A DNA stretch of 64,000 nt from Candidatus Limnocylindria bacterium (GTDB lineage Bacteria; Chloroflexota; Limnocylindria; QHBO01). The position numbers and the translations under genes are program-made. Below are positions 21,657 through 64,000 of this stretch, one piece after another. Numbering within the stretch: position 1 is the stretch's first letter; every line of letters starts with the position of its first letter. The notes beneath the pieces were generated by a model. The model worked only from the letters and a program-made list of their open reading frames with translations. It searched no databases and was not told where the DNA came from. Where the stretch lies: NCBI GenBank assembly GCA_038233215.1, contig JBBSML010000007.1:21002-85001 (forward strand), read 5' to 3'.

Positions 21657-21661
21657 CTCAC

Positions 21662-27873: not shown

Positions 27874-28006
27874 ACCCTGGGTAGCGCTTCGAGCATCACC
27901 TGGCCGTATGCTTTACCGCGGCGAGATGGCTCAGAGACCCACTAGACCGGCGCCCCTAGCTCAACAAACAACGCGTTACCAGGCAACCAACTCGCGGGCG
28001 GCCGGC

Positions 28007-28179: not shown

Positions 28180-28228
28180 CGACTACCGTGTACGCCAGTT
28201 ATAGCGTCGACTCAGGAGGTACTCACGG

Positions 28229-28399
28229 ATGCCCCTGTCCGCTGAACAAATGCAGACAATGATGGCCGAGATCGACTGCGGAGTGACCCGCGAGGAGTCC
28301 CGGCTGGCACCCCTCGACGCCGCTGAAGCGGGGTTCTGGGAACGGGCCGTGGTCGAGATCCGGGCCATCAAAGAGCAAGGCTATCCCGCCGGCGACTGA
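28229..28399 (+). CDS. Unannotated 56-aa ORF with a strong SD (AGGAGG-N8-ATG): MPLSAEQMQTMMAEIDCGVTREESRLAPLDAAEAGFWERAVVEIRAIKEQGYPAGD
   Basis: Canonical SD, ATG start and high GC3; located immediately after the 66-bp repeat pair. Absent from the ORF track only because it is under 60 aa. Confidence 0.5.
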   Translation: MPLSAEQMQTMMAEIDCGVTREESRLAPLDAAEAGFWERAVVEIRAIKEQGYPAGD

Positions 28400-28445
28400 T
28401 GGGCGGCCAGCCGGCACCCAGCCGCCGGAGGACGATGACCGATCA

Positions 28446-29045: not shown

Positions 29046-29131
29046 ACGGATGCCCGCATCCCGCCGACGTCCGTCTGACTCTGCGAACTGACCGGCCCCT
29101 CTTGGAGGGGCACCGACGACGACTCGATCGG

Positions 29132-30409
29132 TCATACCGTCGGCTCCCACGGCGGCCACAGGACGACTTGCGTGGTGTCGAGCCTTCCACCTACGCCATC
29201 CAGCAACGTCGGATTGACCGCACCGCCCGCGGTGACCGCACTCTCGGTTGGTAGATGAGTTTCAACCGCTACACCGCTACGCTCGAGCTTCGCTTCACGC
29301 TCCGAGGCAGCGGAGTAGCGGTTGGGATCGCCTATGGGTGGCGGCAAGTAGCGACTGAACGCGTCGGTGAACTGCTCGAGGTCATAGCCACGGACGTTCT
29401 CTCCACCGATCCTCAGTTGACGGGCGCGAATCCCGAACGGGCTGAGCAGCCGGCCCATGCCGGTTGGCCTCAGTCCTCGACCGTTGTTCCACTCCTGCCA
29501 AGGATGAACCTCGAACTCATCCGCCAGCAGAACATCCAGCAGGTCCCTCAATGCCAGCCGCTCGATGCGACGTTCCGCGAAGATCGTACGGATGTCGCCA
29601 AGCAGTAGGACGGCGACCTTTTCCTCCTCGAGCTCGAGCACCCCGGAGAGCCGTAGGGCAGCGCGGCGCCCGCGCGACGGCCACTCTGCCCCCGCCGCAT
29701 CGGCCAGGGCCAGCAACGGTTCCCAGCTGTCTGCTGCTCGATCAGGCAGCTCTTCTGGTACGTCGGCCTCCTCGGGCAGCCGCAGCTCAGATGCGAGGAC
29801 CTCCCACGCGTCTCTTATGGGCGACGCGTCGCGCTCAGCTGTGCGATACCGGAAGCGTTCGACAGGCTCATGTCGAGCGCGGCGCTTCAGGGCGACGACG
29901 ATAGATCGGTCCTGGACCGTATCGGGTAGCCGTCCGATGCTGGCGATTGCTTTCGGGCAATACACCTCGAACGACTCGAGGCGCATCTTCTTACCCTCAC
30001 TCACGACTCGCCAGAACGGGACACCGCGTCGGTAGCCGTTGTTGAGCAGGCCGCGTATGTCCTCCCCGCCATCGGGGTTCCGCCTTCCAAAGATTGTGTC
30101 TGCTTCGTCCAAGAGCAATGTCGGGTGCCGCTCGTCGATGATGCGAAAGAGGGCCGCGAGGCTCGCACCCGCCATTGGCACGGGCTCGCGAGTGAGCAGG
30201 CGCAGGCACTCGAGTAGCCGTGTCTTCCCAGAACCCTTCTCCGGGCTCTGGATGGCCAAGTACGGCGTCGTGTCGAATTGGTCGTACAGCCAGGAATGAC
30301 CCACCCACAGAGCGACCGCATGGGCTAGTTCTGCGCTGCCAAGGACGACAAAACGGCTCAGAAAGACAGCCGTGCAGTCCAGCAGGTCAGACGTCGCGCT
30401 AGGGCTCAT
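29132..30409 (-). CDS. DUF3631-like P-loop NTPase (replication/mobilization-associated protein of actinobacterial integrative elements)
   Basis: Walker A SPEKGSGKT, LLDEAD Walker B; the family call is from memory. Confidence 0.5.
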   Translation of the reverse strand: MSPSATSDLLDCTAVFLSRFVVLGSAELAHAVALWVGHSWLYDQFDTTPYLAIQSPEKGSGKTRLLECLRLLTREPVPMAGASLAALFRIIDERHPTLLLDEADTIFGRRNPDGGEDIRGLLNNGYRRGVPFWRVVSEGKKMRLESFEVYCPKAIASIGRLPDTVQDRSIVVALKRRARHEPVERFRYRTAERDASPIRDAWEVLASELRLPEEADVPEELPDRAADSWEPLLALADAAGAEWPSRGRRAALRLSGVLELEEEKVAVLLLGDIRTIFAERRIERLALRDLLDVLLADEFEVHPWQEWNNGRGLRPTGMGRLLSPFGIRARQLRIGGENVRGYDLEQFTDAFSRYLPPPIGDPNRYSAASEREAKLERSGVAVETHLPTESAVTAGGAVNPTLLDGVGGRLDTTQVVLWPPWEPTV

Positions 30410-30678
30410 GACGCACCCCGCTTGTCGATGTATCGGCCTATCGCGGAGGCAGGGACTAATCGCCTTCGCCCCACTTTGACCGACCACAACTCGCCGCTGA
30501 GCAGCTCGGCGTAGAGGGCAGTCCGCCCGATGCCGAGTGCCTTCGCGGCTTCGTCGATGCTCAGCAGTCGATCGGGCGAGTCTCGCACCGTGTCCAGCTC
30601 GGCTCGAATCGCGAGGATCAACGCTTGCACAAGGTCGTCGACGGCAACCTGGACGGCCGTCTCATGTTCGCCAGTCAT
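30406..30678 (-). CDS. xis: Excisionase/AlpA-like helix-turn-helix DNA-binding protein
   Basis: LLSIDEAAKALGIGRTALYAELLSGELWSVKVGRRRLV matches the Xis/MerR-type HTH_17 pattern; start inferred at MTGEHE. Confidence 0.55.
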   Translation of the reverse strand: MTGEHETAVQVAVDDLVQALILAIRAELDTVRDSPDRLLSIDEAAKALGIGRTALYAELLSGELWSVKVGRRRLVPASAIGRYIDKRGAS

Positions 30679-30907
30679 TGCCCGCCTCGGCTTCGCCACC
30701 GTCTCGGCGCTGCCGCAACGCAATGCCGCTCCAAGCCCTCCAAGATGAGAACGAGTGCCTGCTCCTTCGCGCCGCGCAACTCGAGCTGGGCCAGTTCCCG
30801 GAGCCGTTCGAAGTCCTGAGTCGGTATCGCGAGATAAATCGTCCTCATGCACAGATGGTCGCGATCTGAGCCTGCTCAGGACAAGGTGTTCAGGTGTTCA
30901 AGTTGCT

Positions 30908-31504
30908 CTAGTGGCCTGCCAGACGCCGTCTAACGGTCGAGACGCTCACGGCTAGAGCACGGGCAACCGCTTGGTAGCCATGAGGCTTGCCCGCGGCGCG
31001 CAGCGCCGCCTGGCAGATCTCGACCTCATCACGATCAACGATCGGCTTTGGTCCGTCCCTCCGGCGCGCCGGGGCGGAGGCGGCGAGTACCTCAGCTGGA
31101 AGCGTGCGCCGGGGCGGCATTGGATGAGTAAGGTCGATCTCCGCGAGGATCTCCCGCGCTTCCATCCTTTGAGCACTACCCACCGTGGGCCATATCCGAC
31201 GGATTAGGCGCTCCCATTGGTCGTCCGAGAGATCCGGCCGTTCGCCCCGAGCCGCACGCAATGCTCTCACCGTGGCAAGAGCGATGCCCGCTAGGGATGG
31301 CGCGCGGGCGGCATGGAGACCAGGTAAGCCCGGTGGAGATCCCAGCGGCGCCGACTGCGCGCAGTCGAGCTCGAGCTGAGTCAAGTCCCTGAATTCACGC
31401 CACACCGCGACGTAGATGAAGCCTCCCGGCGTGGTTGCATCCGATGCCGTCCAGCCCGGCGGGAGCCCGGGTTCATTTAGATCGCCAGGTGACCGTTCGC
31501 TCAA
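30908..31504 (-). CDS. Hypothetical protein with a C-terminal HTH; island-encoded, translationally coupled to the integrase (ATGA overlap)
   Basis: 198-aa ORF ending ...GYQAVARALAVSVSTVRRRLAGH. Confidence 0.5.
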   Translation of the reverse strand: MSERSPGDLNEPGLPPGWTASDATTPGGFIYVAVWREFRDLTQLELDCAQSAPLGSPPGLPGLHAARAPSLAGIALATVRALRAARGERPDLSDDQWERLIRRIWPTVGSAQRMEAREILAEIDLTHPMPPRRTLPAEVLAASAPARRRDGPKPIVDRDEVEICQAALRAAGKPHGYQAVARALAVSVSTVRRRLAGH

Positions 31505-32709
31505 TTGGGTGACTCTTCGCGAGACACCAACGCCCGATTCATCGCAGCAGCAGCTTCGAGGCGCAGCTCCGGGACCACCGCCGCGTAGTGCGACGCCGTG
31601 ATGGCGATGCCAGCGTGGCCGAGAAGCTCGGAGATGACAGCGAGCGGCACGCCCTCCGCGAGAAGCAACGTGGCGGCAGAGTGGCGCAGGTCATGGAGAC
31701 GGATGGGGGGCAAGGCAAGTCGATCACGTGCGCGAGTGAATGCGTGAGACACCATGCCGGGACTGAGGGGTCGGCCCACGGAGTCGGTGAACACGAGTCC
31801 CAGGCGATCCTGCCAAGCGGCTCCGGCGGCGGCCCGGGCAGCACTCTGATTCGTTCGCTGCCGCTCGAGGGCATCCCGACCGGCTGTCGAGAGCGGGATC
31901 GTCCGCCGCGATTTCATAGTCTTCGGATCCGCCATGGTCCAGCGAGAGTCCCCCGCCTCCGCTAGGGAGCGGCGAACGGTCACGGCAACGTCCGTGACGT
32001 CGGACCAAGCCAGCCCCAGCAACTCGCCGCGGCGCAAGCCAGTGGTTACAGCAAGCGTCCACAGCGGGCCAAGCGGATCCTCGAAAGTCCCGTCGATAAG
32101 GCGGCGGACGTCCGACGCCGAGAGATAGGACACAGGCCTATGCGGAACATAGGGCGGAGCCGCATCGGCCGCGGCGTTGCGAGTCACAAGCCCGCTCCGG
32201 ACGGCTGCATTCAGCGCCTTGCGGAGAGTCGCCCGAATGTGGCGGACTGTGAGTGGCGAGACTGGACGCCGCCTGGGCGCCGCAGATATCGAGGCGCCTG
32301 TAGCGAGAAAGGAGTCTAGAGCGCGCTCCACGTCCCCCGACGAGACGCGCTCTACCTGCAGTCGGCCGAGCGCCGGAATCAGATAGCGCCGGACATGCAT
32401 CTCGCGACTCCGCCACGTAGATGGTCGCACTCTCTGTCGGTCACGCTCGATCCAATCGGCAAGATAGTCGGCTAGCGAACCGGACCCCGACGGCGCCAGT
32501 GCGCCGACGCGGAGCTTGACTCGCAGCTCGTCCAACTTGGAACGCGCCTCGGCCGAAGTTCGCCCGGAGACCGTCCGCCGCCCGCGAGAGCCGTCAGCCT
32601 CGGTCCAGGTAACAGCCCCCCGCCAGCGTCCATCTGCGGTCTGATACACGCTGCCCTCGCCTGGCGAGCGTCGTCGGCGCGAGCTTGGAGCGCGAGTGCT
32701 GATGTTCAC
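31501..32709 (-). CDS. int: Tyrosine site-specific integrase (phage integrase family)
   Basis: C-terminal catalytic motifs HDLRHSAATLL...LGHAGIAITASHYA (R..HxxR..Y); adjacent to tRNA-Cys. Confidence 0.85.
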   Translation of the reverse strand: MNISTRAPSSRRRRSPGEGSVYQTADGRWRGAVTWTEADGSRGRRTVSGRTSAEARSKLDELRVKLRVGALAPSGSGSLADYLADWIERDRQRVRPSTWRSREMHVRRYLIPALGRLQVERVSSGDVERALDSFLATGASISAAPRRRPVSPLTVRHIRATLRKALNAAVRSGLVTRNAAADAAPPYVPHRPVSYLSASDVRRLIDGTFEDPLGPLWTLAVTTGLRRGELLGLAWSDVTDVAVTVRRSLAEAGDSRWTMADPKTMKSRRTIPLSTAGRDALERQRTNQSAARAAAGAAWQDRLGLVFTDSVGRPLSPGMVSHAFTRARDRLALPPIRLHDLRHSAATLLLAEGVPLAVISELLGHAGIAITASHYAAVVPELRLEAAAAMNRALVSREESPN

Positions 32710-32795
32710 GTTCGCGATTGTACGCGCATTGCTACCGGCGTTGCTACCGACACTGCGAAACCTGAACCCGCGGCCTCGTTACCGTGCTTGGATTG

Positions 32796-32870
32796 TGGAG
32801 GCGACGACGGGAATCGAACCCGTGTACGCGGTTTTGCAGACCGCTCCCTAAACCACTCGGGCACGTCGCC
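32796..32870 (-). tRNA. tRNA-Cys (GCA); its 3' 44 nt form attR
   Basis: GGCGACG..anticodon loop CTGCAAA..GGGTTCGATTCCCGTCGTCGCCTCCA. Confidence 0.85.
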
Positions 32871-32882
32871 ACGCGCTCATTC

Positions 32883-32956
32883 TGGCTGCCCCGCGAGGAT
32901 TCGAACCTCGGTTCACGGATCCAAAGTCCGCTGTCCTACCGCTAGACGACGGGGCA
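32883..32956 (-). tRNA. tRNA-Gln (UUG)
   Basis: UGCCCCG...anticodon loop CTTTGGA...GAGGTTCGAATCCTCGCGGGGCAGCCA. Confidence 0.75.
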
Positions 32957-33010
32957 ACGCCTCGTCACGCTAGCAGGTCGACAGCGACGGTACCTAGCCG
33001 GACGTGAAAA

Positions 33011-33085
33011 TGGAGCGGAAGACGGGATTCGAACCCGCGACCCTCACCTTGGCAAGGTGATGCTCTACCACTGAGCCACTTCCGC
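33011..33085 (-). tRNA. tRNA-Gly (GCC)
   Basis: GCGGAAGTGGCTCAGTGGTAGAGC..anticodon loop TTGCCAA..GGGTTCGAATCCCGTCTTCCGCTCCA. Confidence 0.85.
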
Positions 33086-33115
33086 CCGCTTGTTGGCCCG
33101 ATGATACCGCGTTGC

Positions 33116-33191
33116 TGGTGCCGAGGGTCAGAATCGAACTGACGACACCCGCCTCTTCAGGGCGGTGCTCTACCGACTGAGCTACCTCGGC
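33116..33191 (-). tRNA. tRNA-Phe (GAA)
   Basis: GCCGAGGTAGCTCAGTCGGTAGAGC..anticodon loop CTGAAGA..GTTCGATTCTGACCCTCGGCACCA. Confidence 0.85.
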
Positions 33192-33266
33192 GCCGATCGT
33201 CACTGCCGCATCAGGCGGTCGCAAGGATACCGATGAGGCCTCTCGGCCGCAACCGCCACACCCGGA

Positions 33267-33929
33267 TCATCGGGGACGCCGATCGAAGAGAATGGTGGCC
33301 GCAAGCGCCGCGATGTAGCCGAACAGCACGAGCCCCGCGATCATGACGACCAATCCGGTGACCCGTCCACCGAGCGTGACCGGCTCGGCTGAACCCCCGA
33401 CCGTCGTCAACGTGGCCAAGGTCCACCACAGGACGTCGCCGTACGTTGCCAGGCCGGGAGTGTTTGCTTCCCCCTCGAACATGAACAGCGCGACCGAGGC
33501 GAATAGTGCGACCGTCGCGATGAGCCCGAAGGCGTAACCGGCACCGTTCCAGTCGAGAGTCCTGCGCACGCTTCGGAGGAGCCGATTCGCTCCTGTCACC
33601 AGCCGAGCCAGGCGCAGCGCCCTCAGCGCGTACGCGAGGCGCGCGAGTCGCAGCACGCGGAAAAAGGGCAGCACCAGCGATATCGCCGTGAGCCAGTGTC
33701 GACGCAGGTACGGCACGACGTGAGGCGCGACCGCAAGGCCGAGCGCAAACTGGAGACCGAAGAAGCCCCAGATCAAGAGTTGTACGGTGCCCAGCCAGCT
33801 CGGGACCGGATCACCCTGCACGGTGAGGATCAGCTCGGTGGCGAGGGCGACGGCAAAGACGAGCGCGAGGAAGGTCGCCGGGCCATCCAGGAATCGCTCG
33901 ACCTGCGCCACGAGCCGCGCGCGCGCGAC
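33267..33929 (-). CDS. Ion-transport (voltage-gated K+/cation channel-like) membrane protein
   Basis: TM helices, an Arg-periodic S4-like segment (LRLARLAYALRALRLARL) and a pore-like TLTTVGGS; the start is uncertain because the ORF-track start overlaps htpX. Confidence 0.5.
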   Translation of the reverse strand, partial: VARARLVAQVERFLDGPATFLALVFAVALATELILTVQGDPVPSWLGTVQLLIWGFFGLQFALGLAVAPHVVPYLRRHWLTAISLVLPFFRVLRLARLAYALRALRLARLVTGANRLLRSVRRTLDWNGAGYAFGLIATVALFASVALFMFEGEANTPGLATYGDVLWWTLATLTTVGGSAEPVTLGGRVTGLVVMIAGLVLFGYIAALAATILFDRRPR

Positions 33930-33943
33930 GGGCCTTGGCTGCA

Positions 33944-34924
33944 CTACCCGGCGGGCACAGCTGGACTCCTGCCGCCGGCCACATTCTCGAGCGCCCGGAT
34001 CCGCTCGCCGATCGGGGGATGGGTATCCCACAGTGACGTTGCCCGCTCCTCGAATGACTTGATCGGGTTGACGATGTAGAGATGCTGCGTTGCGCGGTTG
34101 GCGACCTCGAGCACATCGGAATCGTCGCTGATCGTGCGCAATGCGCGGGCCAGGGCGACAGGATTCCGGGTCAGCTCAACGGCGGTTGCATCGGCGAGGC
34201 TTTCCCGGCTGCGGCTGACCGCCGCCTGGACGAGTCGCCCGATGAGCGGCGCCACGACAGCGAGCACGAGAGCGAGGATGAAGAGGAGCGCCATCGCTCC
34301 CCCACCACCGCCGCCCCGGTCAGAGTCATTGCTACGCCGACCGCCGCCCCAGAACGTGAATCGCAGGAACCAATCGGCGAGCAGGGCAATGCTGCCGACG
34401 AGGACACCAACCAGGAGCGTGAAGCGGATGTCGAGGTTGCCGATATGGCTCATCTCGTGGCCGATCACGCCCTGGAGCTGCTCTCTGTCCAGCTTGTCGA
34501 GGAGGCCAGTCGTGACGGCAACGCTGGCATGCTCGGGGTCGCGGCCGGTCGCGAACGCGTTCGGCGCCGAGTCTTCGATCACCCACAACCGTGGGGGAGG
34601 CAATCCACCGGCAAGCCGCATCTCCTCCGCGACGTTCACGAACTGCCGGTAGCGCTCCACCGGCTGTCCCCGATCAACCTCGCGCGCGCCACTGGTGGCC
34701 ATCACCAGCGCGTCACCGGCGAAGAAGGTGCCGACGCTCATCACGGTCGCCACCACGAGCGCGATCACCACGCCGCCCCAGCCGAACCCGGTCGCGTAGC
34801 CGATCGCGGCGCCGAGCAGTCCGAGCACGACCACCACGATCGCGACCAGAAACCAGCTGCGGCGCCGGTTGCGCTCGATCTCGCGGTAGAAGATGGTCGG
34901 CGTCGGGCGCCTCTCGGCCGTCAT
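33944..34924 (-). CDS. htpX: Protease HtpX (M48 zinc metalloprotease)
   Basis: HEMSHIGNLD HExxH with flanking TM helices. Confidence 0.8.
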   Translation of the reverse strand: MTAERRPTPTIFYREIERNRRRSWFLVAIVVVVLGLLGAAIGYATGFGWGGVVIALVVATVMSVGTFFAGDALVMATSGAREVDRGQPVERYRQFVNVAEEMRLAGGLPPPRLWVIEDSAPNAFATGRDPEHASVAVTTGLLDKLDREQLQGVIGHEMSHIGNLDIRFTLLVGVLVGSIALLADWFLRFTFWGGGRRSNDSDRGGGGGGAMALLFILALVLAVVAPLIGRLVQAAVSRSRESLADATAVELTRNPVALARALRTISDDSDVLEVANRATQHLYIVNPIKSFEERATSLWDTHPPIGERIRALENVAGGRSPAVPAG

Positions 34925-34928
34925 CGGC

Positions 34929-35509
34929 CTATGCCGAACGCAGGTTGACCTCCGGAACCGCGGCATCCGACTCGGCGATCTGGAAGTAATCGCGCTCGCG
35001 GAAGCCGAACATCCCGGCGATGAGCACGGTCGGGAAGGTCTGCACTGCGGTGTTGAACTCCCGGACGGTGCTGTTGTAATGCTGGCGGCTGAAGCCGATC
35101 TGGTTCTCGGTCGTGGTCAGCTCCTCCTGGAGCTGCATGACGTTCTCGTTGGCCTTGAGATCGGGATAGTTCTCCACCAGCGCGAACAGCTGTCGGAGAG
35201 CCCCGGTGAGGAAGTTCTCCGCCTGCGCGGCCTGGCCCGCATTGCCGGGACCGCCGGCCTGGGCGCTCACCGCGGCGGATCGGGCCTCGATGACCTTCGC
35301 CAGGGTCTCCTGCTCAAAGTCCATGTACCCCTTGACCGCATTCACGAGGTTCGGGATCAGATCATGGCGCCGCTTGAGCTGAACGCTGATCTGGTTCCAA
35401 GCCTCGTCGACCATGTTCCGCAACCGGACCAGGCCGTTGTACGTGAAGATCAGGAAGACGACGATGACCGCGATCGCGATCAGCAGAATGATGACCCACA
35501 ATGGCATTG
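34929..35509 (-). CDS. lemA: LemA family protein
   Basis: N-terminal TM helix then the LemA domain (YNGLVRLRNMVDEAWNQISVQLKRRHDLIPNLV); start at MPLWVII. Confidence 0.75.
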
Positions 35510-35777
35510 AGGATGGCTCCTGGCGCTCGGGACGTTTGACGGCGGCATCGTACCAGCCGGTGCGTCCCTGCCCTTCGCGCGCGGAGCACACGTTCAACAC
35601 ACGGGTGCGGGTTCGAATGGCTCCGCGCGGTCCTCGGGCCCCCGGACGACGTGAGGCTTGCCGATCATGTCGTCCGGCGGATCGGCCTGCTCGATGGAGA
35701 ACACCCATTGCGGGACGTCCTCGAGTGTCACCGAGTCCACGGCACCTCGGGTGGCCCCGATGGACCTTGCCCGCTGT

Positions 35778-35854
35778 TGGTGGGCGGTGAGGGACTCGAA
35801 CCCCCGACCCCCTCGGTGTAAACGAGGTGCTCTGACCAGCTGAGCTAACCGCCC
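35778..35854 (-). tRNA. tRNA-Val (UAC)
   Basis: GGGCGGTTAGCTCAGCTGGTCAGAGC..anticodon loop TTTACAC..GGTTCGAGTCCCTCACCGCCCACCA. Confidence 0.85.
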
Positions 35855-35919
35855 GTATCGGTTTCGAGCGTATCACTGTCTTCGTGCGCGGGAGGCGTGA
35901 TCTACGTGGCGGGCAGGAG

Positions 35920-36140
35920 CAAACGCCCAATGAAGCGTGGTCCGCCCCGTAGGGCGAGGCTAACGATCAATGAAGCGTGGTCTCTTGTGCCATTTACCGG
36001 TCCGACGGGTCATCTTGCCGACAGGCGCGCGGTTCTGCCTCGTCCGATGGCCGATAGCTCCGCACCACGGGTCCCGCGCTCGCGATCCACGAGGGCTCAC
36101 TCGTTCAATGGCGGATAGTCCCGCACCACGGGTCGCGCGT
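35920..36140. repeat. Intergenic repeat block: caatgaagcgtggtc x2 flanking the hairpin CGCCCCGTAGGGCG, and two ~27-bp imperfect repeats atggc(c/g)gatag(c/t)(t/c)ccgcaccacgggtc
   Basis: Read directly between tRNA-Val and tRNA-Leu; no convincing ORF. Confidence 0.6.
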
Positions 36141-36207
36141 CGCTGGGAGAAACGAAGAGCGCCGCTCGCAGCGGCGCAAGCGGCGCATCGGTCTGAAAAG
36201 AAGGAAT

Positions 36208-36293
36208 TGGTGCCCAGGCCGGGACTTGAACCCGGATGAGTTGCCTCATACGCCCCTCAAACGTACGCGTATACCAATTCCGCCACCTGGGCC
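36208..36293 (-). tRNA. tRNA-Leu (GAG)
   Basis: Class II tRNA with a long variable arm; anticodon loop TTGAGGG. Confidence 0.7.
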
Positions 36294-36299
36294 CGAGCG

Positions 36300-36386
36300 T
36301 GGTACCGAGGGAGGGACTTGAACCCACACGACCTTGCGGCCACTAGGTCCTGAACCTAGCGCGTCTGCCTATTCCGCCACCTCGGC
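36300..36386 (-). tRNA. tRNA-Leu (CAG)
   Basis: GCCGAGGTGGCGGAATAGGCAGACGC..anticodon loop TTCAGGA..long variable arm..GGGTTCAAGTCCC. Confidence 0.8.
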
Positions 36387-53214: not shown

Positions 53215-54861
53215 ATGGCCATCTCCGCTGCCCCTTCGTTCGCGGTCGACGCGATCCTGGCGGTGCTCGACCCGGAGCAGCGCGCCGCGGCGATCCTGCC
53301 GGACGGACCGGCGCAGATCATCGCGCCCGCGGGCAGCGGCAAGACAACCACCATGGTCGCTCGGCTGGCGGTGCTGCTCTCACGGGGCGTGTCGCCGGAG
53401 CGAATCTGCGTTGTCACCTTCAACCGTGATGCGGCCCTGGACCTCGCCGTGCGGGTCAAACGCCGACTGGCGGCTTCGCTCCCCGCGGCCACATCGATCG
53501 AGGTGCGAACGCTGCACGCCCTTGCGCGCCAGGTGCTGCTTGACGCGGACGAGGGCCACAACATTGTCGCGGACCGCCTCCCACTGCTTCGAGCAGCACG
53601 ACGCCGCGTGATGCTTGATGCGCCGACAGATGGAACAGCCGAGCCATCGCAGCTTGATACCTACCTCTCGGCCTGGAAGATCGAAGGACGCCCCCCGCCC
53701 GACGAAGCACGCCCGGTCCTGCAGGCATACGCGGATCTGCTGCGCATCCGAGGGGCAGTCGACTTCGATGACCTCGTCGTGCGGGCGTGCGACCTGCTCG
53801 AGACCGATCCTCGTCTCCGCCTGCGGTGGCAGTCGCGCTTCAGTCACGTCTGCGTCGATGAATTCCAGGACGTGGACGCCGCGCAGCTCAGGCTCGTTCG
53901 ACTGCTCGCCACGCCCGAGGACAACCTGTTCGTGGTCGGCGACGACGACCAGACGATCTACGCGTGGCGCCTGGCCGACGTGCGCCGCATCCTGCGCTTC
54001 TCCCTCGACTATCCCGCTGCACGTCGCGTGATGCTGGCCACGAACTACCGCTGCCCGGCAGCGGTCGTCGCCGCCTCTGCCCAGATGGTCGCAGTCAACC
54101 GCGAGCGCTTCGACAAACCAATTCGAGCGCCCGCCGCCGCAGCTGACACCGATACGGCGATCGCGGCATGGAACAGCGCCGGACCGGCCTGGACCGATGC
54201 ACTCGTGCGCCTTTCGACCGTCGAGGACGCCGCCGGCCGGTCGCTGTGCTTCCTTTCGCGGACCCGTGGCGAGCTGACTCCCATCCTCCTGGCGCTCGTA
54301 CACGGCGGCATCCGACACCGGACCGCGATCGCGCCCATCGTGGAGAATGAGCGAATCATCGCCCTCGTGGAGGCTGCCCGTCCGCTTGACACGCCGGAGC
54401 ATCCGTTCCACGTGCTTCGCCGCCTGCGAGCAGGCTGCGGCTGGTCACGCGATGACCCGGCGTCCGACCTGCTCGGGGACGACGACCACGCCGCGCTCGA
54501 TGCCATGCTCGGTTGGTCGACCGGCTTCTCGCTGATGCCCTCGTTCGTAGCGGCCTACGATGCCGCGCGAACACGAATTGCCGGCCTGCGAGACCCGAGC
54601 GCGACGGTTGAGCTCGCGACCGTGCATGCGTCCAAGGGCCGTGAGTGGGAGACCGTCGTGCTCGTCGGCTTCGAAGCGGATCGGATCCCGAACCGACGCT
54701 CGCTCCTCGATGCGGACGACCCCGACCGCGCGCTGGAGGAGGAACGCCGCCTCGCCTATGTCGCGCTTACACGGGCCACCCGCCAGCTCATCCTCGGCTT
54801 CGACCCGGCTCACCCGTCACCGTTTCTCGCCGAAATGGGCTTCGGCACCGTCCGCGGATAG
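53215..54861 (+). CDS. UvrD/Rep/PcrA-family helicase-like protein (short form, 548 aa)
   Basis: Walker A APAGSGKTTTMV, DEFQD (motif II), VGDDDQTIYAWR (motif III), C-terminal VHASKGREW...VALTRA. Confidence 0.7.
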   Translation: MAISAAPSFAVDAILAVLDPEQRAAAILPDGPAQIIAPAGSGKTTTMVARLAVLLSRGVSPERICVVTFNRDAALDLAVRVKRRLAASLPAATSIEVRTLHALARQVLLDADEGHNIVADRLPLLRAARRRVMLDAPTDGTAEPSQLDTYLSAWKIEGRPPPDEARPVLQAYADLLRIRGAVDFDDLVVRACDLLETDPRLRLRWQSRFSHVCVDEFQDVDAAQLRLVRLLATPEDNLFVVGDDDQTIYAWRLADVRRILRFSLDYPAARRVMLATNYRCPAAVVAASAQMVAVNRERFDKPIRAPAAAADTDTAIAAWNSAGPAWTDALVRLSTVEDAAGRSLCFLSRTRGELTPILLALVHGGIRHRTAIAPIVENERIIALVEAARPLDTPEHPFHVLRRLRAGCGWSRDDPASDLLGDDDHAALDAMLGWSTGFSLMPSFVAAYDAARTRIAGLRDPSATVELATVHASKGREWETVVLVGFEADRIPNRRSLLDADDPDRALEEERRLAYVALTRATRQLILGFDPAHPSPFLAEMGFGTVRG

Positions 54862-54934
54862 ATCGCCCGTTTCGACCACCGACTTGATGCGGCGAGGCGC
54901 CACTCGGCGTGAGGGCAGCCCGGTGTCTCGACCG

Positions 54935-57874
<2,940 letters not shown>

Positions 57875-57907
57875 CGGACGTTCATCGTAGCAGGAACGGG
57901 ACCGATG

Positions 57908-57921
57908 CGAACGCCTGTTCG
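57908..57921. promoter_or_regulatory. Predicted LexA/SOS (Cheo-type) box CGAACGCCTGTTCG, 34 bp upstream of the uvrA start
   Basis: GAAC-N4-GTTC palindrome matching the Gram-positive/actinobacterial consensus TCGAAC-N4-GTTCGA. Confidence 0.55.
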
Positions 57922-58090
57922 GTTTGGCACTTGCCCAGCGGGGCGTACCGTGACGAATGGCGGCAAACATGGCGGAAGTATCCGGATGGGGGTGGTTAGT
58001 CACGATTGTCATGTCGTCACGGGCGGCGCATGGTACTGGGACATCGGTACCGTGTGCCGACCAGGGGGATCGGGGGGAGACATATGGGGA

Positions 58091-58132
58091 CCCGGGCCGA
58101 TTGCCACACCAGATGATGGCAATCGGCCCGGG
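58091..58132. other. Perfect 16-bp inverted repeat (CCCGGGCCGATTGCCA / TGGCAATCGGCCCGGG) with a 10-nt loop, in the uvrA/ABC divergent intergenic region
   Basis: Read directly. Confidence 0.9.
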
Positions 58133-58160
58133 ATGTTGCCCGGACGAGGTGGCAGGAACG

Positions 58161-58415
58161 ATGTTTTCGGTTGCGGTCAGGGGATGCGGCATCATCATCT
58201 GGGACGGTGACGGCGAATGGCGCATGTTCGCCGTGAGTGAATCGGTGAGCCGTACCCTCGGGGCACGCGTGGAGTTCGCCCTGCAATCGATTCCGCTGGC
58301 GGCAAATGACATCGAGGTCCGGGAAGCGCTCCTCTCGATAGCCGGCGCCGCCTTTCTCTCCGCCGACTGCGAGCACGGCCCCGGCGAGTGCGACGGAGAG
58401 GCAAACTTCAGCTGA
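58161..58415 (+). CDS. Hypothetical small Cys-containing protein (84 aa) immediately upstream of an ABC-2 exporter operon
   Basis: ATG with the upstream AGGAA SD-like motif, high GC3; [20 protein letters not shown]...[17 protein letters not shown]; no recognizable family. Confidence 0.35.
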
Positions 58416-58485
58416 GTGGGCATTGGCTGCCTGCGACGATGACGTATTCGCGACGATGGTGACCGGTGTTACCATCCCTCTCCCG

Positions 58486-58496
58486 CCCCCCCCCCC
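58486..58496. repeat. Homopolymeric C11 tract 7-28 nt upstream of the ABC transporter start
   Basis: tcccgcccccccccccgcctgcttg. Confidence 0.9.
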
Positions 58497-58502
58497 GCCT
58501 GC

Positions 58503-59558
58503 TTGAGCACGTGCTGTCTTTCGATGCCTGACGAACTCGCCATCCACGCCCGCGGGGTGACCCGCGTCTACAAGGCCAAGCCGACTCCCGTGACGGCCCT
58601 CGGCGGCGTTGACCTCGACGTCGAGCCAGGCGAGTACTTCGGCCTGCTGGGTCCGAATGGTGCGGGCAAGACAACCCTGATCAAGATCCTGACGACACTC
58701 CTCCTGCCGACGAGCGGGACGGCGAAGGTCGCCGGCTTCGACGTGGTCCACGAGACGGCGAAGATTCGGCGCGTGATCAACATGGTGGCGGGGGGCGAGC
58801 AGTCGGGGTATGGCCTGCTCACCGTCCGCGAGCAGCTCTGGATGTTCAGCCAGTTCTACGGCCTGCCGACGCGTGAAGGATGGCGCCGCGTGGACGAGCT
58901 GATCGAGATCACCGGCCTGACCGAGCAGCGCCAGCAGAAGGTCCGCACGCTCTCCACCGGCCAGCGCCAGAAGCTCAACTTCGCGCGTGGCCTGCTGAAT
59001 GACCCGTGGGTCCTGTTCCTGGACGAGCCGACACTCGGATTGGACGTCGCCGCGGCAAGGGATCTCCGTGAGCACACGCTCTCCTGGAAGGCGGCCGCGC
59101 CCGGGCGCACCCTGCTGCTCACGACCCACTACATGGTCGAGGCCGAGCAGCTCTGCGACCGAATCGCGATCGTCGACCGCGGCAAGATCCTGGCGCTTGG
59201 CACGCCGGAGGAGCTCCGGCGACGCGTGCAGGCCGAGTCGATCTTCCGTCTCGAGCTCGATCGAATGCCACAGAGCGGCGGCATCGCCGGGATCGCGGCG
59301 CTGCCCGGAGTCCTGTCCGCGGTGCGCGCGGACGAGGAGATGGCGGACGGCGGCGCTTCGGACCGCGTGGCGCTCAAGATCGCGCTCGCCGACGATTCTG
59401 CCCTGACCAGCGTGGTCACCGCGGTCGCCGAGCGCGGTTCGCATCTCATGGGCCTGGCGAAGTCGGAGCCGAGCCTGGAGGATGTGTTCGTCGAGCTTGT
59501 CGGCCGCGGCTTCGGCGACGAAGGCGACGAAATGGGCAGCGAGGAGCCAGCCGCATGA
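58503..59558 (+). CDS. ABC transporter ATP-binding protein (ABC-2/DrrA-like)
   Basis: Walker A GLLGPNGAGKTT, signature LSTGQRQK, Walker B LFLDEPT; the start is probably the ATG at 58524. Confidence 0.8.
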   Translation: MSTCCLSMPDELAIHARGVTRVYKAKPTPVTALGGVDLDVEPGEYFGLLGPNGAGKTTLIKILTTLLLPTSGTAKVAGFDVVHETAKIRRVINMVAGGEQSGYGLLTVREQLWMFSQFYGLPTREGWRRVDELIEITGLTEQRQQKVRTLSTGQRQKLNFARGLLNDPWVLFLDEPTLGLDVAAARDLREHTLSWKAAAPGRTLLLTTHYMVEAEQLCDRIAIVDRGKILALGTPEELRRRVQAESIFRLELDRMPQSGGIAGIAALPGVLSAVRADEEMADGGASDRVALKIALADDSALTSVVTAVAERGSHLMGLAKSEPSLEDVFVELVGRGFGDEGDEMGSEEPAA

Positions 59559-60430
59559 GCGGATATCACGGTGCCCCTGCGTCGAACGCGCGTGAGGCCG
59601 CGGACTGGTCAACGGGACGCGTCATCCAGACGAATCTTCGTGCGGTGCTGGGCCGCGCGTATCCCAGGGTCATCGGCCTGACCCGCGAACCGTCGTGGCT
59701 CTTCTTCGAGATCTTTTTGCCGTTCCTTGCCGTCAGCGCTTTCGTCTTCGTGTACCGCGCACTCGAGGCGCCGGAAGCGTTCATCGGCTTCGTCGTCCTC
59801 GGTGGCGCCATGACCTCGTTCTGGCTCAACGTCGTCTGGATGATGGCGGCGCAGTTCTACTGGGAGAAGGACCAGGGCAACCTGGAGCTCTACTTCACGG
59901 CGCCGATGCACCTGATGAGCGTCCTGGCCGGCATGGCCATCGGCGGGCTGGTCATGACGAGCTCGCGAGCGGTGGCCGTCATCGGCATCGGGTCATTGCT
60001 GTACGGCGTGACCTATGACATCCAGCAGCCATTCCTGCTGGCAGGCGTCTTTCTCTTGACCATGATTCCGCTGTACGGCATGGGGATGCTCTTCGCGTCC
60101 CTCTTCCTGCTCTGGGGCCGCGAGGCCTTCCACCTCGCCCAGCTTCTCCAGGAGCCGATCTACTTCCTGGGCGGCGTGAACTTTCCACTGCGCGCCATCG
60201 GTCCCATTGCCGGCGTGGTCATTGCCACGCTGCCGCTCGGGGTCGGACTCGACGCGATGCGTCAGTTGGCGTTCGCCGGCAGCGGCGTGGAAGGCGTTCT
60301 GCCGGTCGGGGCCGAGATCCTCATTCTCATCGCGATGGGCGTCGTGTTCCTCGTCTCGGCGCGACTCGCGCTCGGATACCTCGAGTTTCTCGCCAGGCGC
60401 GAAGGCCGGCTGACCCTGCGATGGCAGTAA
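59555..60430 (+). CDS. ABC-2 type transporter permease
   Basis: Six-TM ABC-2 permease topology, ATGA overlap with the ATPase gene. Confidence 0.65.
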   Translation: MSGYHGAPASNAREAADWSTGRVIQTNLRAVLGRAYPRVIGLTREPSWLFFEIFLPFLAVSAFVFVYRALEAPEAFIGFVVLGGAMTSFWLNVVWMMAAQFYWEKDQGNLELYFTAPMHLMSVLAGMAIGGLVMTSSRAVAVIGIGSLLYGVTYDIQQPFLLAGVFLLTMIPLYGMGMLFASLFLLWGREAFHLAQLLQEPIYFLGGVNFPLRAIGPIAGVVIATLPLGVGLDAMRQLAFAGSGVEGVLPVGAEILILIAMGVVFLVSARLALGYLEFLARREGRLTLRWQ

Positions 60431-61293
60431 CCGACCGGACCGCCCCGGTCCGCGGCTTGACCCTGGAGGATGCGTGGCGCAGCTTCCGCACCGCCATCGG
60501 CCTGGGCTGGGCGATCGAGTCGAACTGGTCCGATCCGTTCCTCTTCGCGATCTACACCATGGCCAAGCCGCTCGCCGCGGCCGGCATCCTGGTCGTCATG
60601 TTCCAGGTCATCACCCAGGGCCAGAACACCGAGTTTCTCCAGTTCCTCATCGTGGGAAGCGCCCTCTGGAACGTCGTCTTCGGCGTGATGAGCGGGCTGG
60701 TGCAATCGATCCTCGAGGATCGAGAACGCTACCGGATGATCAAGTACGTCGTGGTCACTCCCACGTCGCTCTTCCCGTTCCTTCTCGGTCGATCGCTCGC
60801 GCGTGTGGTCGTGTCGTTCGTGGCGGTCATCCTGACGATGCTTGTGGGGATCGTGTTCCTGAACGTGCAGCTCCAACCGAACCTGCTGTACCTCGTTCCG
60901 GCCACGGTGCTCGGCGTCATGGCCGTCATGGCACTCGGCGTGTTCATGGCCGGCTGGTGCCTGCAGCTGCGACAGGAGGCCTGGTCCTACCCGGAGGCCA
61001 TCGCCGGCGCGCTGTACCTGATCTCCGGCGCGATCTTCCCGATCGACATCCTGCCCGCTTTCCTTCACCCGCTCGCCTATGCCTCCCCGACCACGTGGTG
61101 GCTCGAGGCGTCGCGCCGCGGTCTGCTGGGGCACGGCTCGCCCGGCACGCTGGGCGACCTCTCGGATGGAACGGTCATGCTGCTGCTGGCCCTTTCGACC
61201 GCGATCGTGATTCCGTTAGCGCTGGCCGCCTTCGCCTGGTTCATGCGACGTGCCCGACAGGCCGGGCTGCTCGACATGACCACGGGGAGCTGA
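60421..61293 (+). CDS. ABC-2 type transporter permease (second copy)
   Basis: Paralogous six-TM permease overlapping the previous gene. Confidence 0.65.
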   Translation: MAVTDRTAPVRGLTLEDAWRSFRTAIGLGWAIESNWSDPFLFAIYTMAKPLAAAGILVVMFQVITQGQNTEFLQFLIVGSALWNVVFGVMSGLVQSILEDRERYRMIKYVVVTPTSLFPFLLGRSLARVVVSFVAVILTMLVGIVFLNVQLQPNLLYLVPATVLGVMAVMALGVFMAGWCLQLRQEAWSYPEAIAGALYLISGAIFPIDILPAFLHPLAYASPTTWWLEASRRGLLGHGSPGTLGDLSDGTVMLLLALSTAIVIPLALAAFAWFMRRARQAGLLDMTTGS

Positions 61294-61300
61294 GCCCCGG

Positions 61301-61813
61301 CTACCGCACGAGCTCGTCGTAGTCGTTGACGACAAGGGTGCTTCGACAGCGCTCGACGCGCTCCGGGACGCAGGCCGTGGCCGCCTTATCATCGAGGTGC
61401 CCCTCGAAGACGAGCTGCTGGATGCGCAGGTTCGGCCCGGCAGGATCGGCCCGGGAAGGGAACGCGTTGCCGAGCGGGGCGGCAAGCCGCAGCCCATCAC
61501 GGATCAGCTCTTTCTGACTCACATCATCGGCCGGCTGATGGGGCAGAAGGACGCGCAGCGGGCAGTCGCGCTGCAGCCAGGCGACGGTCGCATCGGCTCC
61601 CCCGTCGTCACCCGTGCAGTCGGCATCCAGCTCGGCATACCAGCCGGTCACAAAGACCTCGTCGCTCCCCCACTCGCCGGCCAGCGCTTCCTCGACGGTG
61701 AGCGGATCGACCTCCGGCCGCGTCCCGCCCAGCGACCCGATGACGAGCATGAAGAAGACGAACGCGCCAAGCGCCGCAACGACTCCTGCGCCGATTCGGA
61801 CCTCGCGAGTCAT
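61301..61813 (-). CDS. Hypothetical membrane-anchored protein
   Basis: N-terminal TM helix (AGVVAALGAFVFFMLVIGSL), then a soluble Cys-containing domain; no family recognized. Confidence 0.4.
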   Translation of the reverse strand: MTREVRIGAGVVAALGAFVFFMLVIGSLGGTRPEVDPLTVEEALAGEWGSDEVFVTGWYAELDADCTGDDGGADATVAWLQRDCPLRVLLPHQPADDVSQKELIRDGLRLAAPLGNAFPSRADPAGPNLRIQQLVFEGHLDDKAATACVPERVERCRSTLVVNDYDELVR

Positions 61814-62478
61814 GATCCGAGCGATTCCCACCGGTCGCGCAGGACTTCCATCGCCCGTCGCCAGAGCTCGACCCGGGCCGGGTCGTTCAGCCAGGTGGAA
61901 GCACCCGACGGGTGCGGCAGGCACAGGACCGATGCGTCCGGCGCATCATCCCAGGCAAGCTCGCGACCAACCAGCTCATCCAGCTTCACTTGAGCCCCGA
62001 ACGCCAGGCGATGCGCCATGCCACCGACCAGCAGCACGAGCGCCGGTCGGACGAGGCGCAGCTCCTCGCGCAGGAAGGGCGCCCAGCGAGCGATTTCGGC
62101 ACGCGACGGCGGCAGGTCGACCGAAGCGCCCGCGGCGCGCCCGGGATAGCACTTGGCGATGCTGGTCACGTACCAGCGCTCACGGAAATCCTCGATGGTG
62201 ATACCGGCGGCGGCCAACCAGCCGCACAGGCGCTTCCCCGCGTCCCAGGCGAATGGGAGTCCGGTCTCGATCTCGCGCCAGCCCGGTGCCTGGCCGACGA
62301 GTATCGCCCGCTCCCGACCGTCGCCCGAGAGCACCGGCTTCGCTCCGCTGCCACAGCCAGGCATCGTGTCCTGGAGCGCGCGCAGGTCCGTTCCGGCCGC
62401 AGCGCGACGCGGCGTCGGGGTGGGCCAGTTGCCGACGTGCCGGAGGCGCCTCGGTTCCGCCGTCGCAAGGTCGATCAC
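61810..62478 (-). CDS. Uracil-DNA glycosylase, family 4/5-type (UDG superfamily)
   Basis: ILVGQAPGWREIETGLPFAWDAGKRL (family-4 GxAPGxxExxxGxPFxGxAG motif) and C-terminal HPSG. Confidence 0.65.
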   Translation of the reverse strand: MIDLATAEPRRLRHVGNWPTPTPRRAAAGTDLRALQDTMPGCGSGAKPVLSGDGRERAILVGQAPGWREIETGLPFAWDAGKRLCGWLAAAGITIEDFRERWYVTSIAKCYPGRAAGASVDLPPSRAEIARWAPFLREELRLVRPALVLLVGGMAHRLAFGAQVKLDELVGRELAWDDAPDASVLCLPHPSGASTWLNDPARVELWRRAMEVLRDRWESLGS

Positions 62479-63104
62479 ACGGAGGGGCGGAGGGCCTCGG
62501 CCGCCCGGAGGTCATCGGCAATCGCGAGGCGCAACATGCGGCGCACGCCATCCTGGTACGGACCGGCAGCGCTGAGCGCATCGGTCAGGGCGTCCCGCGC
62601 CGCGTAGAGGCGGTCGATCGCATCGACCGTGAGCTCCGGCGCCCCACCGCCAAGGTCACGCACGAACGCCACGTCCTGCCGCTCAATTGCATCGAGCAGG
62701 TCGGCGGCGGCCGACGGATCTCCGCCATCGAGCGCATCGGCCAGCTCCTCGCGCGCCAGCTCCATCCAGCGCATCCAAGTGGCGAACTCGGCATCGCTCG
62801 GTGGCAGCTCATCCAGGGTGAAGGCAGCACGACCACCCTCGGGCGCGGCGGCTCGTTCCACCTCGTACCAGTTATCGCCCACGAAATCCGGCTGCGACTC
62901 GCCGCTGGCCCGCAGCCATGCGGTGAATCGGCTCACGCGTCGGGGCATGGTCGAGGTGGCCTCGTCGTCAGTCGGGGCGAAGACCGCACAACCAGGCAGC
63001 TCGGCGGCGTACGCGCCCACCTGTCCGCGACCGTCGATATCGGTCTCGACGAAGATCGCGTGCGGCATGGTGCCAGCCACTATGTCAGCCCCTGCTGGTG
63101 CCAT
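62475..63104 (-). CDS. Hypothetical protein with an N-terminal HicB-like (UPF0150) domain
   Basis: GAYAAELPGCAVFAPTDDEA matches the HicB/UPF0150 signature; the C-terminal half is uncharacterized and acidic. Confidence 0.4.
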   Translation of the reverse strand: MAPAGADIVAGTMPHAIFVETDIDGRGQVGAYAAELPGCAVFAPTDDEATSTMPRRVSRFTAWLRASGESQPDFVGDNWYEVERAAAPEGGRAAFTLDELPPSDAEFATWMRWMELAREELADALDGGDPSAAADLLDAIERQDVAFVRDLGGGAPELTVDAIDRLYAARDALTDALSAAGPYQDGVRRMLRLAIADDLRAAEALRPSV

Positions 63105-63138
63105 AGTATATATTGATATACTTCAGCGCTTTCGGCGC

Positions 63139-64000
63139 TCATGGTCGCCTCCGTTTCGGCGGACGGCGCCGTGATCCTGCGGCGATGACGTTCGGTTTGG
63201 TCTGCACGCTGAAGACCTGGGAGGCTCCGTCGCGAGCCCTGCGGCTCACCGGTTCATCGGCGCCCGCAGCCGCCGCGTAGACCTCGGCAGGGATACTGCC
63301 CGGCGCGGCCGCGAGCTCCTCACGCAGGCGACGCAGCTGAAGGATCTCGTCGCGCAGCGCGGCCGCACGTTCGAACTCGAGGTTGCGGGCAGCCTCCTTC
63401 ATCTGCGCCTCCAACCGACCGGTCATCGCAGCCAGCTCCGCCGGCTCCTTGCCGGCAACCTGCAGCTCGGCGCGGTCCTCAGCCACGCGGCGCAGGCTCT
63501 CGTGGATGCTGCGGATCTCCTTGATGATCGTCTCCGGCGTGATGCCATGCTCGACGTTGTACGCCACCTGCTTCTCACGGCGCCGATCGGTCTCGTCCAT
63601 CGCCTTGCGCATCGAGTCGGTGACGCGATCGGCGTACATGATCACCCGGCCGCCGATGTTGCGCGCGGCCCGCCCGATGACCTGGATCAATGAACCGCCG
63701 GAGCGCAGGAATCCCTCCTTGTCCGCGTCGAGGATGGCAACCAATGTGACCTCCGGAAGGTCGAGCCCCTCCCGCAGCAGGTTGATGCCGACGAGCACGT
63801 CGTAGACCCCGAGGCGAAGGTCACGCAGGATCTCGATCCGCTCGAGCGTGTCGACCTCGGAGTGCAGCCACTGCACCTTGATGCCGAGTTCCGAGAGATA
63901 GTCGGCCAGGTCTTCCGCCATCTTCTTGGTCAGCGTCGTCACCAGGGCGCGCTCTCCGCGCGCCACGGTGGCACGAATCTCGGCCAGCAGGTCGTCGATC
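63139..64000 (-). CDS. uvrB: Excinuclease ABC subunit B, C-terminal portion (truncated by the window end)
   Basis: Helicase C motifs ([26 protein letters not shown]) and the C-terminal UVR coiled-coil domain. Confidence 0.85.

Follow-up and report, generated by a model that had tools for sequence, protein, structure and literature searches.

A conserved small-protein gene, a DrrAB-type exporter and a strain-specific C11 tract are probably separable neighbours in a Candidatus Limnocylindria genome

Here we describe a 64,000-nt stretch of DNA (the window) from a Candidatus Limnocylindria bacterium (assembly GCA_038233215.1, contig JBBSML010000007.1, positions 21,002–85,001), in which a gene for an 84-residue protein, orf84 (58161–58415, plus strand), is followed by the three genes of an ABC-2 exporter across a 108-nt spacer that contains an uninterrupted run of eleven cytosines (C11; 58486–58496, plus strand). 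An earlier note on this DNA had treated these elements as one compact unit. Our comparison with related loci suggests instead that orf84, the DrrAB-type exporter and C11 are separable neighbours rather than one mechanism, a reading to which we assign a probability of roughly 0.65: orf84 and the exporter carry promoter-like modules of their own, each survives without the other, and the cysteine motif of orf84 does not track the exporter. Three real features would accordingly lie side by side, an orf84 unit, an exporter unit and a strain-specific C11, with no mechanism in common. Overall, this is an ordinary neighbourhood with an orphan small protein, and nothing in it speaks for a switch.

orf84 and the exporter are each found without the other

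Relatives of the window sequences place it in Ca. Limnocylindria (Chloroflexota); its G+C content is 66.9%, rising to 87% at third codon positions (GC3). Two sets of loci were compared. The set picked with orf84 comprised 45 genome loci and 4 more from exact look-ups, giving 44 distinct testable loci, and the set picked with the second permease of the exporter (permease 2) comprised 80 metagenome loci, 24 of them with enough upstream sequence. The ATPase gene of the exporter lies downstream of orf84, at a distance of 82–377 nt and in the same direction, in 38 of the 44 orf84-picked loci, and orf84 is directly upstream in 18 of the 24 permease-2-picked loci. The position of orf84 immediately before the exporter, as given in the earlier note, is thus borne out by homologues and synteny, and where that note had looked to a lack of orf84 conservation as the mark against its proposal, we saw orf84 conserved in most loci that keep the exporter.

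In the remaining six orf84-picked loci (L004, L033, L043, L044, L045 and L046, all among the more divergent), orf84 stands beside uvrA and the three ABC genes are missing from the locus. In L033 and L043–L045, a convergent membrane-protein gene on the opposite strand (orf207) follows 6–26 nt after the orf84 match, and in L043 the stop codons of orf84 and orf207 overlap. Because orf84 directly abuts the membrane-protein gene in such exporter-less loci, the exporter cassette (2.9 kb, spacer included) is a clean presence/absence polymorphism. The exporter-less copies of orf84 retain the C-x-H-G-P-G-x-C motif of the protein's tail; the motif is missing from an exporter-linked homologue (L139/P0074).

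The exporter also persists on its own. In L090, uvrA and its LexA box are joined directly to two conserved spacer blocks, A and B (see below), and to the ATPase gene, orf84 and its promoter having gone. The same separation probably applies to L073, L119 and L125, where LacI or GH1 genes lie upstream of the exporter and no orf84 is in view. In L067 and L111, another gene is inserted between orf84 and the ATPase gene. In about 18 loci, LacI/GH1 cassettes split uvrA from orf84, not orf84 from the ATPase gene. The gene order from the uvrD-like gene to uvrB is kept across Limnocylindria, and because this whole block is syntenic, adjacency of orf84 and the exporter is weak evidence when taken alone.

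Each unit carries a conserved upstream module

Reading of the sequence upstream of orf84 revealed a putative sigma-70-type promoter (58006–58034, plus strand) consisting of TTGTCA (58006–58011), a 17-nt spacer and CATGGT (58029–58034). Relatives of the same subclade share the layout TTGnCn-N17-CAnGGT, and most other relatives have TTGGCA-N17-(G/C)AT(G/C)CT in the equivalent place. The leader contains a 19-mer, GGTACTGGGACATCGGTAC (58032–58050, plus strand), in which nearly all columns are invariant among 12 subclade sequences and which is also found beside the distant orf84 homologues in L138 and L139. A G-rich stretch separates this block from an inverted repeat predicted to form a hairpin with a perfect 16-bp stem and a 10-nt loop (58091–58132, plus strand). 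Pairing in the hairpin is kept despite sequence change, with compensatory changes in 8 of the 13 predicted pairs across 12 sequences, and the loops usually hold GGGGA. Neither the hairpin nor the exporter leader has a match in Rfam: at gathering scores tRNAs alone passed in the whole window, and a search of 57800–58700 at E ≤ 10 gave only chance-level hits, none above 22 bits where the gathering scores are 46.5–100. The region 58032–58132 is possibly an undescribed cis-regulatory leader, and orf84 would be transcribed from its own promoter through this conserved, partly structured leader. Where LacI/GH1 genes split orf84 from uvrA, the upstream module stays with orf84.

Most relatives (L001–L047, L067–L117) carry in the orf84 leader a 17-mer of the form YRGTAC-N5-YAGTAC, for example CAGTACCCGACCAGTAC (L014:2850–2866), at a fixed position of −37 to −20 from the orf84 ATG. 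Within 934 kb the pattern matches 50 times, 40 of them at this position, and it looks like a gene-specific operator or another protein-binding site, though a putative one. GTAC-N7-GTAC was also considered as a regulon-wide, LexA-like operator and was rejected, the 17-mer being nearly confined to the front of orf84.

The spacer between orf84 and the ATPase gene holds three conserved blocks. Block A, GATGACGTATTC (58438–58449, plus strand; consensus GGATGACGTATTCC), is conserved in many relatives and is kept upstream of the ATPase gene in L090, where orf84 is deleted. Block B, GGTGTTACCATCCCTCTCCCGCC (58465–58487, plus strand), has the consensus GGTGCTAsCATCCCGCTCCCGCC and occurs once in the window. 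Comparison among relatives points to an extended −10 element within it, made up of TG (58467–58468) and the hexamer TACCAT (58470–58475): the T, A .. A and T of the hexamer are invariant in all 32 aligned spacers, with the TG preceding them. TGn-TAnnnT is the pattern that typifies extended −10 boxes, and the regions upstream of tRNA genes in the window show similar GTGaTAnnnT strings. Block B is retained wherever the exporter is retained, including in L090, despite the loss of orf84, and in L067, where a gene has been inserted. Since the TGn-TAnnAT element always travels with the exporter, we infer for the exporter an extended −10 promoter of its own, located in the spacer. Block C, GTGCTGTC (58511–58518, plus strand; consensus GGTGCTGCC), lies 5–13 nt before the ATPase ATG. 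No conserved RNA fold was detected in the spacer (RNAalifold consensus −0.38 kcal/mol). The exporter would be transcribed from this spacer promoter, with read-through from orf84 possible in addition. Together, these motifs outline a probable promoter and leader architecture for two transcription units in the Limnocylindria lineage, for which we found no promoter data.

orf84 encodes a small, probably folded protein confined to Ca. Limnocylindria

Searching 5.8 billion protein clusters, we obtained 58 homologues of orf84 at E ≤ 1e-16, with 52–100% identity and nearly all 84 residues long, every one of them in Ca. Limnocylindria; a profile search of 1.84 billion representative proteins likewise found a narrow family of 25 clusters. 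Across 45 distinct coding sequences, the first, second and third codon positions differ at 0.255, 0.24 and 0.452, the third positions being about twice as variable as the first or second. The ratio of non-synonymous to synonymous change (dN/dS, NG86) is 0.13–0.29 for orf84 versus 0.03–0.18 for the three ABC genes, showing that orf84 is under purifying selection and that its protein changes 3–5 times faster than its neighbours. orf84 is a genuine, conserved gene, which excludes the option that it might be non-coding, left open in the earlier note on the grounds of sequence features alone. Its weak Shine-Dalgarno sequence is present as described there, as a GAGGTGG at 58146–58152 whose GAGG lies 11 nt before the ATG.

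Alignments show invariant residues that include W14, W20, R21, L33, R36, C70, H72, P74 and C77, while Cys9 of the window protein is a Tyr in almost all relatives. An AlphaFold2 model based on the 58-sequence alignment has a mean predicted local distance difference test score (pLDDT) of 85 and the topology b(2–6)-b(10–16)-b(19–24)-a(27–42)-a(50–58)-b(63–68). In the model, residues 1–68 form an a/b fold whose block-mean pLDDT values are 91–96; the tail from residue 70 is of low model confidence and flexible. This acidic tail carries the C-x-H-G-P-G-x-C motif, replaced in divergent members by C-x3-C-x3-C or lost. We found no match for orf84 in Pfam, NCBIfam, PADLOC, PHROGs, PDB sequences or PDB folds, nor for its divergent members in Pfam, NCBIfam, PADLOC or PHROGs. 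A relationship to Roadblock/LC7 (MglB-like, PF03259) was rejected, the single hit arising in 1 of 27 members at E = 0.14 and the fold search giving it no backing. The product of orf84 would be a small cytoplasmic protein with a compact b-b-b-a-a-b domain and a flexible acidic tail bearing two cysteines and one histidine.

Small metal- or redox-sensing proteins with Cys/His tails are known, for example those with CDGSH-type or metallochaperone tails, and orf84 resembles such generic sensors in its short, flexible, acidic tail with the pattern C-x-H-x4-C-D-G (C-x3-C-x3-C in divergent members). From this motif, we tentatively suggest that orf84 might be a protein that binds or senses by means of thiols or a metal and works in trans on a partner. 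As it stands, orf84 represents a solidly supported but functionally blank small-protein family in an uncultured class of Chloroflexota that abounds in soil and fresh water. Should the pump or the repair genes turn out to be modulated by it, orf84 would count as a new and compact regulator, though nothing found here requires such a role.

Several observations weigh against treating orf84 and the exporter as separable. Homologues of orf84 with 35–46% identity (L138, L139) still adjoin the exporter in the same orientation, and an adjacency that extends to members so divergent could reflect shared function rather than general synteny. What we compared were loci, such that a gene scored as absent is absent at the locus, not from the genome. 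A generic sigma-70 scan of 57700–58700 returned no sites because the −35 regions are poor, and the promoter calls therefore draw on comparative conservation; promoters and start sites alike are readings of motifs. A scan of the same interval predicted no terminator between orf84 and the ATPase gene, leaving read-through from orf84 possible. The divergent homologues and the lack of a predicted terminator, together with the co-directional arrangement in 38/44 and 18/24 loci and the fact that most insertions hit the uvrA-orf84 gap rather than the orf84-ATPase gap, are what would be expected if the two were a functional pair, with orf84 acting as a regulator, accessory subunit or sensor (gating on metal, redox or genotoxic stress, for example) that is co-transcribed by read-through. 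We nevertheless regard such a pairing as unlikely: orf84 and the exporter each persist at loci that lack the other, each has a conserved promoter-like module of its own, and the Cys/His tail does not co-vary with the presence of the exporter. Moreover, adjacency carries little information in a uvrD-uvrB neighbourhood that is syntenic throughout, and the insertions around orf84 are not independent events. A small open reading frame (ORF) with C-terminal cysteines beside an ABC-2 exporter might also suggest that orf84 is cargo, either as a precursor resembling those of ribosomally synthesised and post-translationally modified peptides (RiPPs), with the Cys-rich C-terminus as the core, or in some other form. 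RiPP systems have adjacent modification or processing enzymes and a precursor made of an unstructured leader and a core, neither of which is seen here. The first 68 residues are predicted to be folded, with pLDDT above 90 over most of them, and the N-terminal domain goes beyond a mere leader in holding invariant Trp, Arg and Gly residues. Some homologues have no cysteines, orf84 persists without the exporter, and the neighbouring genes (uvrA, the ABC genes, the membrane-protein gene, a uracil-DNA glycosylase (UDG) gene and uvrB) include no cyclase, dehydratase, radical-SAM enzyme or protease. Because residues 1–68 fold confidently in the model and no peptide-modifying enzyme lies nearby, the substrate or precursor role raised in the earlier note is unlikely, and we find a RiPP-like precursor or other exporter cargo scarcely credible. 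Two separate neighbouring units remain our preferred reading.

The C11 tract is a peculiarity of one strain

C11 was found exactly where the earlier note had located it; on the putative exporter transcript it would fall at about +2 to +17. It is the sole homopolymer of at least 8 nt in the window, where runs of G or C number 292 at length 4, 57 at length 5, 10 at length 6 and 1 at length 7, followed by the single run of 11. There are no G/C runs longer than 7 in 488 kb of related DNA, leaving C11 alone in about 550 kb of the lineage, and a first-order Markov model predicts 0.055 runs of at least 11 per window. C11 is therefore a real outlier. At the tract site itself, no run longer than 6 was present in 39 genome leaders, 12 close metagenome relatives or 24 permease-picked loci. 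In the 12 closest relatives, which come from independent metagenomes, this site is CCCGCCCGCCCCTCC or CCCGCCCGCCCCCC, with at most C6, and the leaders are 43–44 nt long, versus 47 nt in the window. All relatives have an exporter leader rich in C and poor in G (C 0.34–0.54 versus G 0.21–0.34), and C11 would have arisen by strain-specific homogenisation and 3-nt lengthening of a leader that was already C-rich, relatives having CCCGCCCCTCC or CCCGCCCCCC. A G-quadruplex or i-motif was considered as the cause of the C-rich leader and rejected; the canonical (C3+N1–7)x4 pattern is present in just 11 of 39 leaders, and is thus not the conserved feature.

The tract begins 10 nt after the putative −10 hexamer (58470–58475). 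Its distance to the ATPase gene depends on the start codon: all relatives share ATGCCTGACGAA at ATG 58524, the conserved start, whereas TTG 58503 is not conserved. The tract consequently ends 27 nt before the real start; of the range of 7–28 nt given in the earlier note, the end that relied on TTG 58503 falls away and the end that relied on ATG 58524 stands, at 27 nt. Placed between the putative −10 box and the ORF, C11 cannot alter −35/−10 spacing or reading frame. The proposal that it could change the length of the 5′ leader thus holds, and that of an effect on promoter spacing does not. C11 might conceivably affect early transcription (through reiterative synthesis), Rho loading or the length of the leader. 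At most it would tune leader length or early transcription rather than switch the operon on or off.

Contingency tracts in Neisseria, Haemophilus and Campylobacter cause phase variation by slipped-strand mispairing, and C11 resembles them in being a perfect 11-nt G/C homopolymer, above the roughly 8 nt needed for slippage, near the 5′ end of an envelope-related operon. Given that it lies immediately upstream of the exporter operon, stands out in about 550 kb of the lineage, where every other G/C run is 7 or shorter, and occupies a segment whose make-up and length differ between close relatives (leaders of 43–47 nt), C11 could be taken for a hypermutable tract whose length changes switch or tune exporter expression. 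Yet the known tracts sit within ORFs or in the gap from −35 to −10, occur at numerous loci of a genome and differ in length from strain to strain, while C11 is single, is placed between a putative −10 and the start codon where it changes neither promoter spacing nor frame, and is absent from all relatives, which do not maintain a tract of varying length and have no run above 6 at the site. With no other repeat loci of this kind seen in the genome, we consider a contingency function highly improbable, and the slippage switch envisaged in the earlier note is not supported by the relatives. The occurrence of C11 in one assembly only, its extreme place in the run-length spectrum and the existence of a single contig on record with the exact orf84 protein could point to an assembly or sequencing artefact. 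We searched for a second assembly of the same strain from which to read tract length and found none; the nearest other contig, L051, ends within the leader before the tract position. An artefact is still very unlikely, since the tract is interior to the window with both flanks collinear with and conserved in relatives, since deriving C11 from CCCGCCCCTCC needs substitutions as well as a 3-nt gain, unlike the usual homopolymer miscount, and since the genes of the window are intact and other inflated runs are lacking. A further alternative takes block B not for a promoter element but for a leader peptide (an upstream ORF, uORF), a cis-acting RNA or a Rho-loading (rut) site that attenuates read-through from orf84, with C11 encoding a proline run. 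Indeed, the window frame from ATG 58456 to TGA 58506 (16 codons) is open and passes through C11, in about 12 relatives the same frame ends at a TGA overlapping the ATPase start, in every relative the leader has the high C and low G content of rut sites, and the ATPase gene is without a Shine-Dalgarno sequence. Set against this, 20 of the 44 distinct leaders have no start codon in the uORF frame, stop positions scatter from −17 to beyond +1000, and block-to-ATG distances of 49–67 nt lack 3-nt periodicity. The invariant T, A .. A and T include a third codon position that is poor in GC, against a genomic GC3 of 87%, and RNAalifold gave no conserved structure. The uORF through block B and C11 was rejected as not conserved as an ORF in relatives, and an attenuating leader of any of these kinds appears decidedly improbable.

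The most far-reaching combination of these elements would make orf84 the founder of a new class of small Cys/His-tailed sensors through which metal, redox or genotoxin stress is coupled to a DrrAB-type pump within the nucleotide-excision-repair island of Limnocylindria, with the C-rich leader, here C11, as a second cis control point acting through early-transcription slippage or Rho loading. This we see as a long shot. A one-strain peculiarity, rather than a conserved switch, is what the comparison indicates for this striking homopolymer beside an exporter, which saves the effort of following it up.

The exporter genes encode a predicted DrrAB-type system

As described in the earlier note, an ATPase gene and two ABC-2 permease genes lie downstream of orf84, and Pfam matches to ABC_tran, DrrA1-3_C and ABC2_membrane confirm their identity. 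The DrrA-like ATPase (344 aa; 58524–59558, plus strand) matches PF00005 ABC_tran at 98.4 bits, against a cut-off of 25, and PF13732 DrrA1-3_C at 28.8 bits, slightly over the cut-off of 27.4; its TIGR01188 drrA score of 284.4 bits is under the curated cut-off of 312.45. Among solved chains, ABCA-type nucleotide-binding domains and 4yer come nearest to it. Permease 1 (291 aa; 59555–60430, plus strand) and permease 2 (290 aa; 60421–61293, plus strand) match PF01061 ABC2_membrane at 28.5 and 55.4 bits, respectively, against a cut-off of 26.9, and permease 2 has a weak drrB match. By sequence, no PDB relative was found for permease 1, and permease 2 gave a marginal match alone (8tsh_C, E = 0.009). 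The stop codon of the ATPase gene and the start of permease 1 overlap as ATGA (59555–59558), as had been noted, but the junction between the two permease genes, also given as ATGA, is a 10-nt overlap, ATGGCAGTAA (60421–60430). No Shine-Dalgarno sequence is present before the ATPase ATG. In L002 (6363–6386) and at the equivalent place in L022, the ATPase start region is tandemly duplicated (ATGCCTGACCGA ATGCCTGACGAC), giving two in-frame ATG starts 12 nt apart.

An ATPase with two unlike ABC-2 permeases would make up a translationally coupled DrrAB-type exporter. By its domain content this is a generic DrrAB-type (type V) system with a heterodimeric membrane part, export itself being predicted. 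The daunorubicin/doxorubicin exporter DrrAB of Streptomyces peucetius goes with DrrC, a UvrA-like resistance protein (PMC11458662). The system described here is similar to DrrAB in its ATPase, with ABC_tran and DrrA-type C-terminal domains, in its DrrB-like ABC-2 subunits and translationally coupled genes, and in its location beside an excision-repair protein, here canonical uvrA and in S. peucetius drrC (PMC11458662). It differs in a drrA score under the family cut-off, in having two unlike permeases rather than one DrrB, and in the lack of a biosynthetic cluster, no biosynthetic genes being found near the exporter. The neighbour here is moreover no class II UvrA-like protein but a canonical uvrA of about 979 aa with a LexA box and, in relatives, a UvrA_inter domain.

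In gene content, the system also resembles three-gene ABC-2 exporters such as the mycobacterial Rv2686c-Rv2688c, in which one ATPase gene goes with two unlike ABC-2 permease genes and the junctions overlap. An orf84-like gene is not known upstream of exporters of that kind.

The locus lies in a DNA-repair neighbourhood

The surrounding region (53215–64000) is a DNA-repair neighbourhood with the order uvrD-like, uvrA, orf84 and the exporter, a membrane protein of about 170 aa, UDG, orf209 and uvrB. The UvrD-like helicase gene occupies 53215–54861. uvrA runs on the minus strand from an ATG at 57874, leaving a uvrA-orf84 intergenic region of 286 nt. On the other side, a family-4 UDG gene (61810–62478), orf209 (62475–63104) and uvrB (from 63139) are, like the membrane-protein gene, on the minus strand and convergent on the exporter. 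The membrane-protein gene, a 207-aa ORF at 61301–61924 on the minus strand, probably encodes about 170 aa from a start at ATG 61813, which overlaps the UDG stop by ATGA; relatives have a 175-aa call with the same 4-nt overlap. The orf209/UDG junction is a 4-nt overlap as well, and because both junctions overlap in this way, we suggest that orf209, UDG and the membrane-protein gene form one minus-strand operon. The membrane protein has one predicted transmembrane helix and four cysteines, and matched no known family.

A perfect Cheo-type LexA box, CGAACGCCTGTTCG, is located at 57908–57921, about 35 nt upstream of the uvrA start. Every locus that shows uvrA has a GAAC-N4-GTTC box at the equivalent place, with at most 1–2 base differences, and the box remains with uvrA, not orf84, where genes are inserted between the two. 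Elsewhere in the window, eight minus-strand tRNA genes lie at 20576–36386, five of them clustered at 32799–33191.

Cassettes with a LacI-type regulator and a GH1 glycosidase, and with sugar ABC genes, recur as insertions in the uvrA-orf84 intergenic region. They lie upstream of orf84 in L001, L009, L013, L018, L019, L024, L029, L035, L037 and L040–L042, and are also seen in L073 and L119. These cassettes carry palindromes, such as TGTGAGAGCGCTCTCACA, and in L004 a similar LacI/GH1 cassette is found downstream of orf84 instead.

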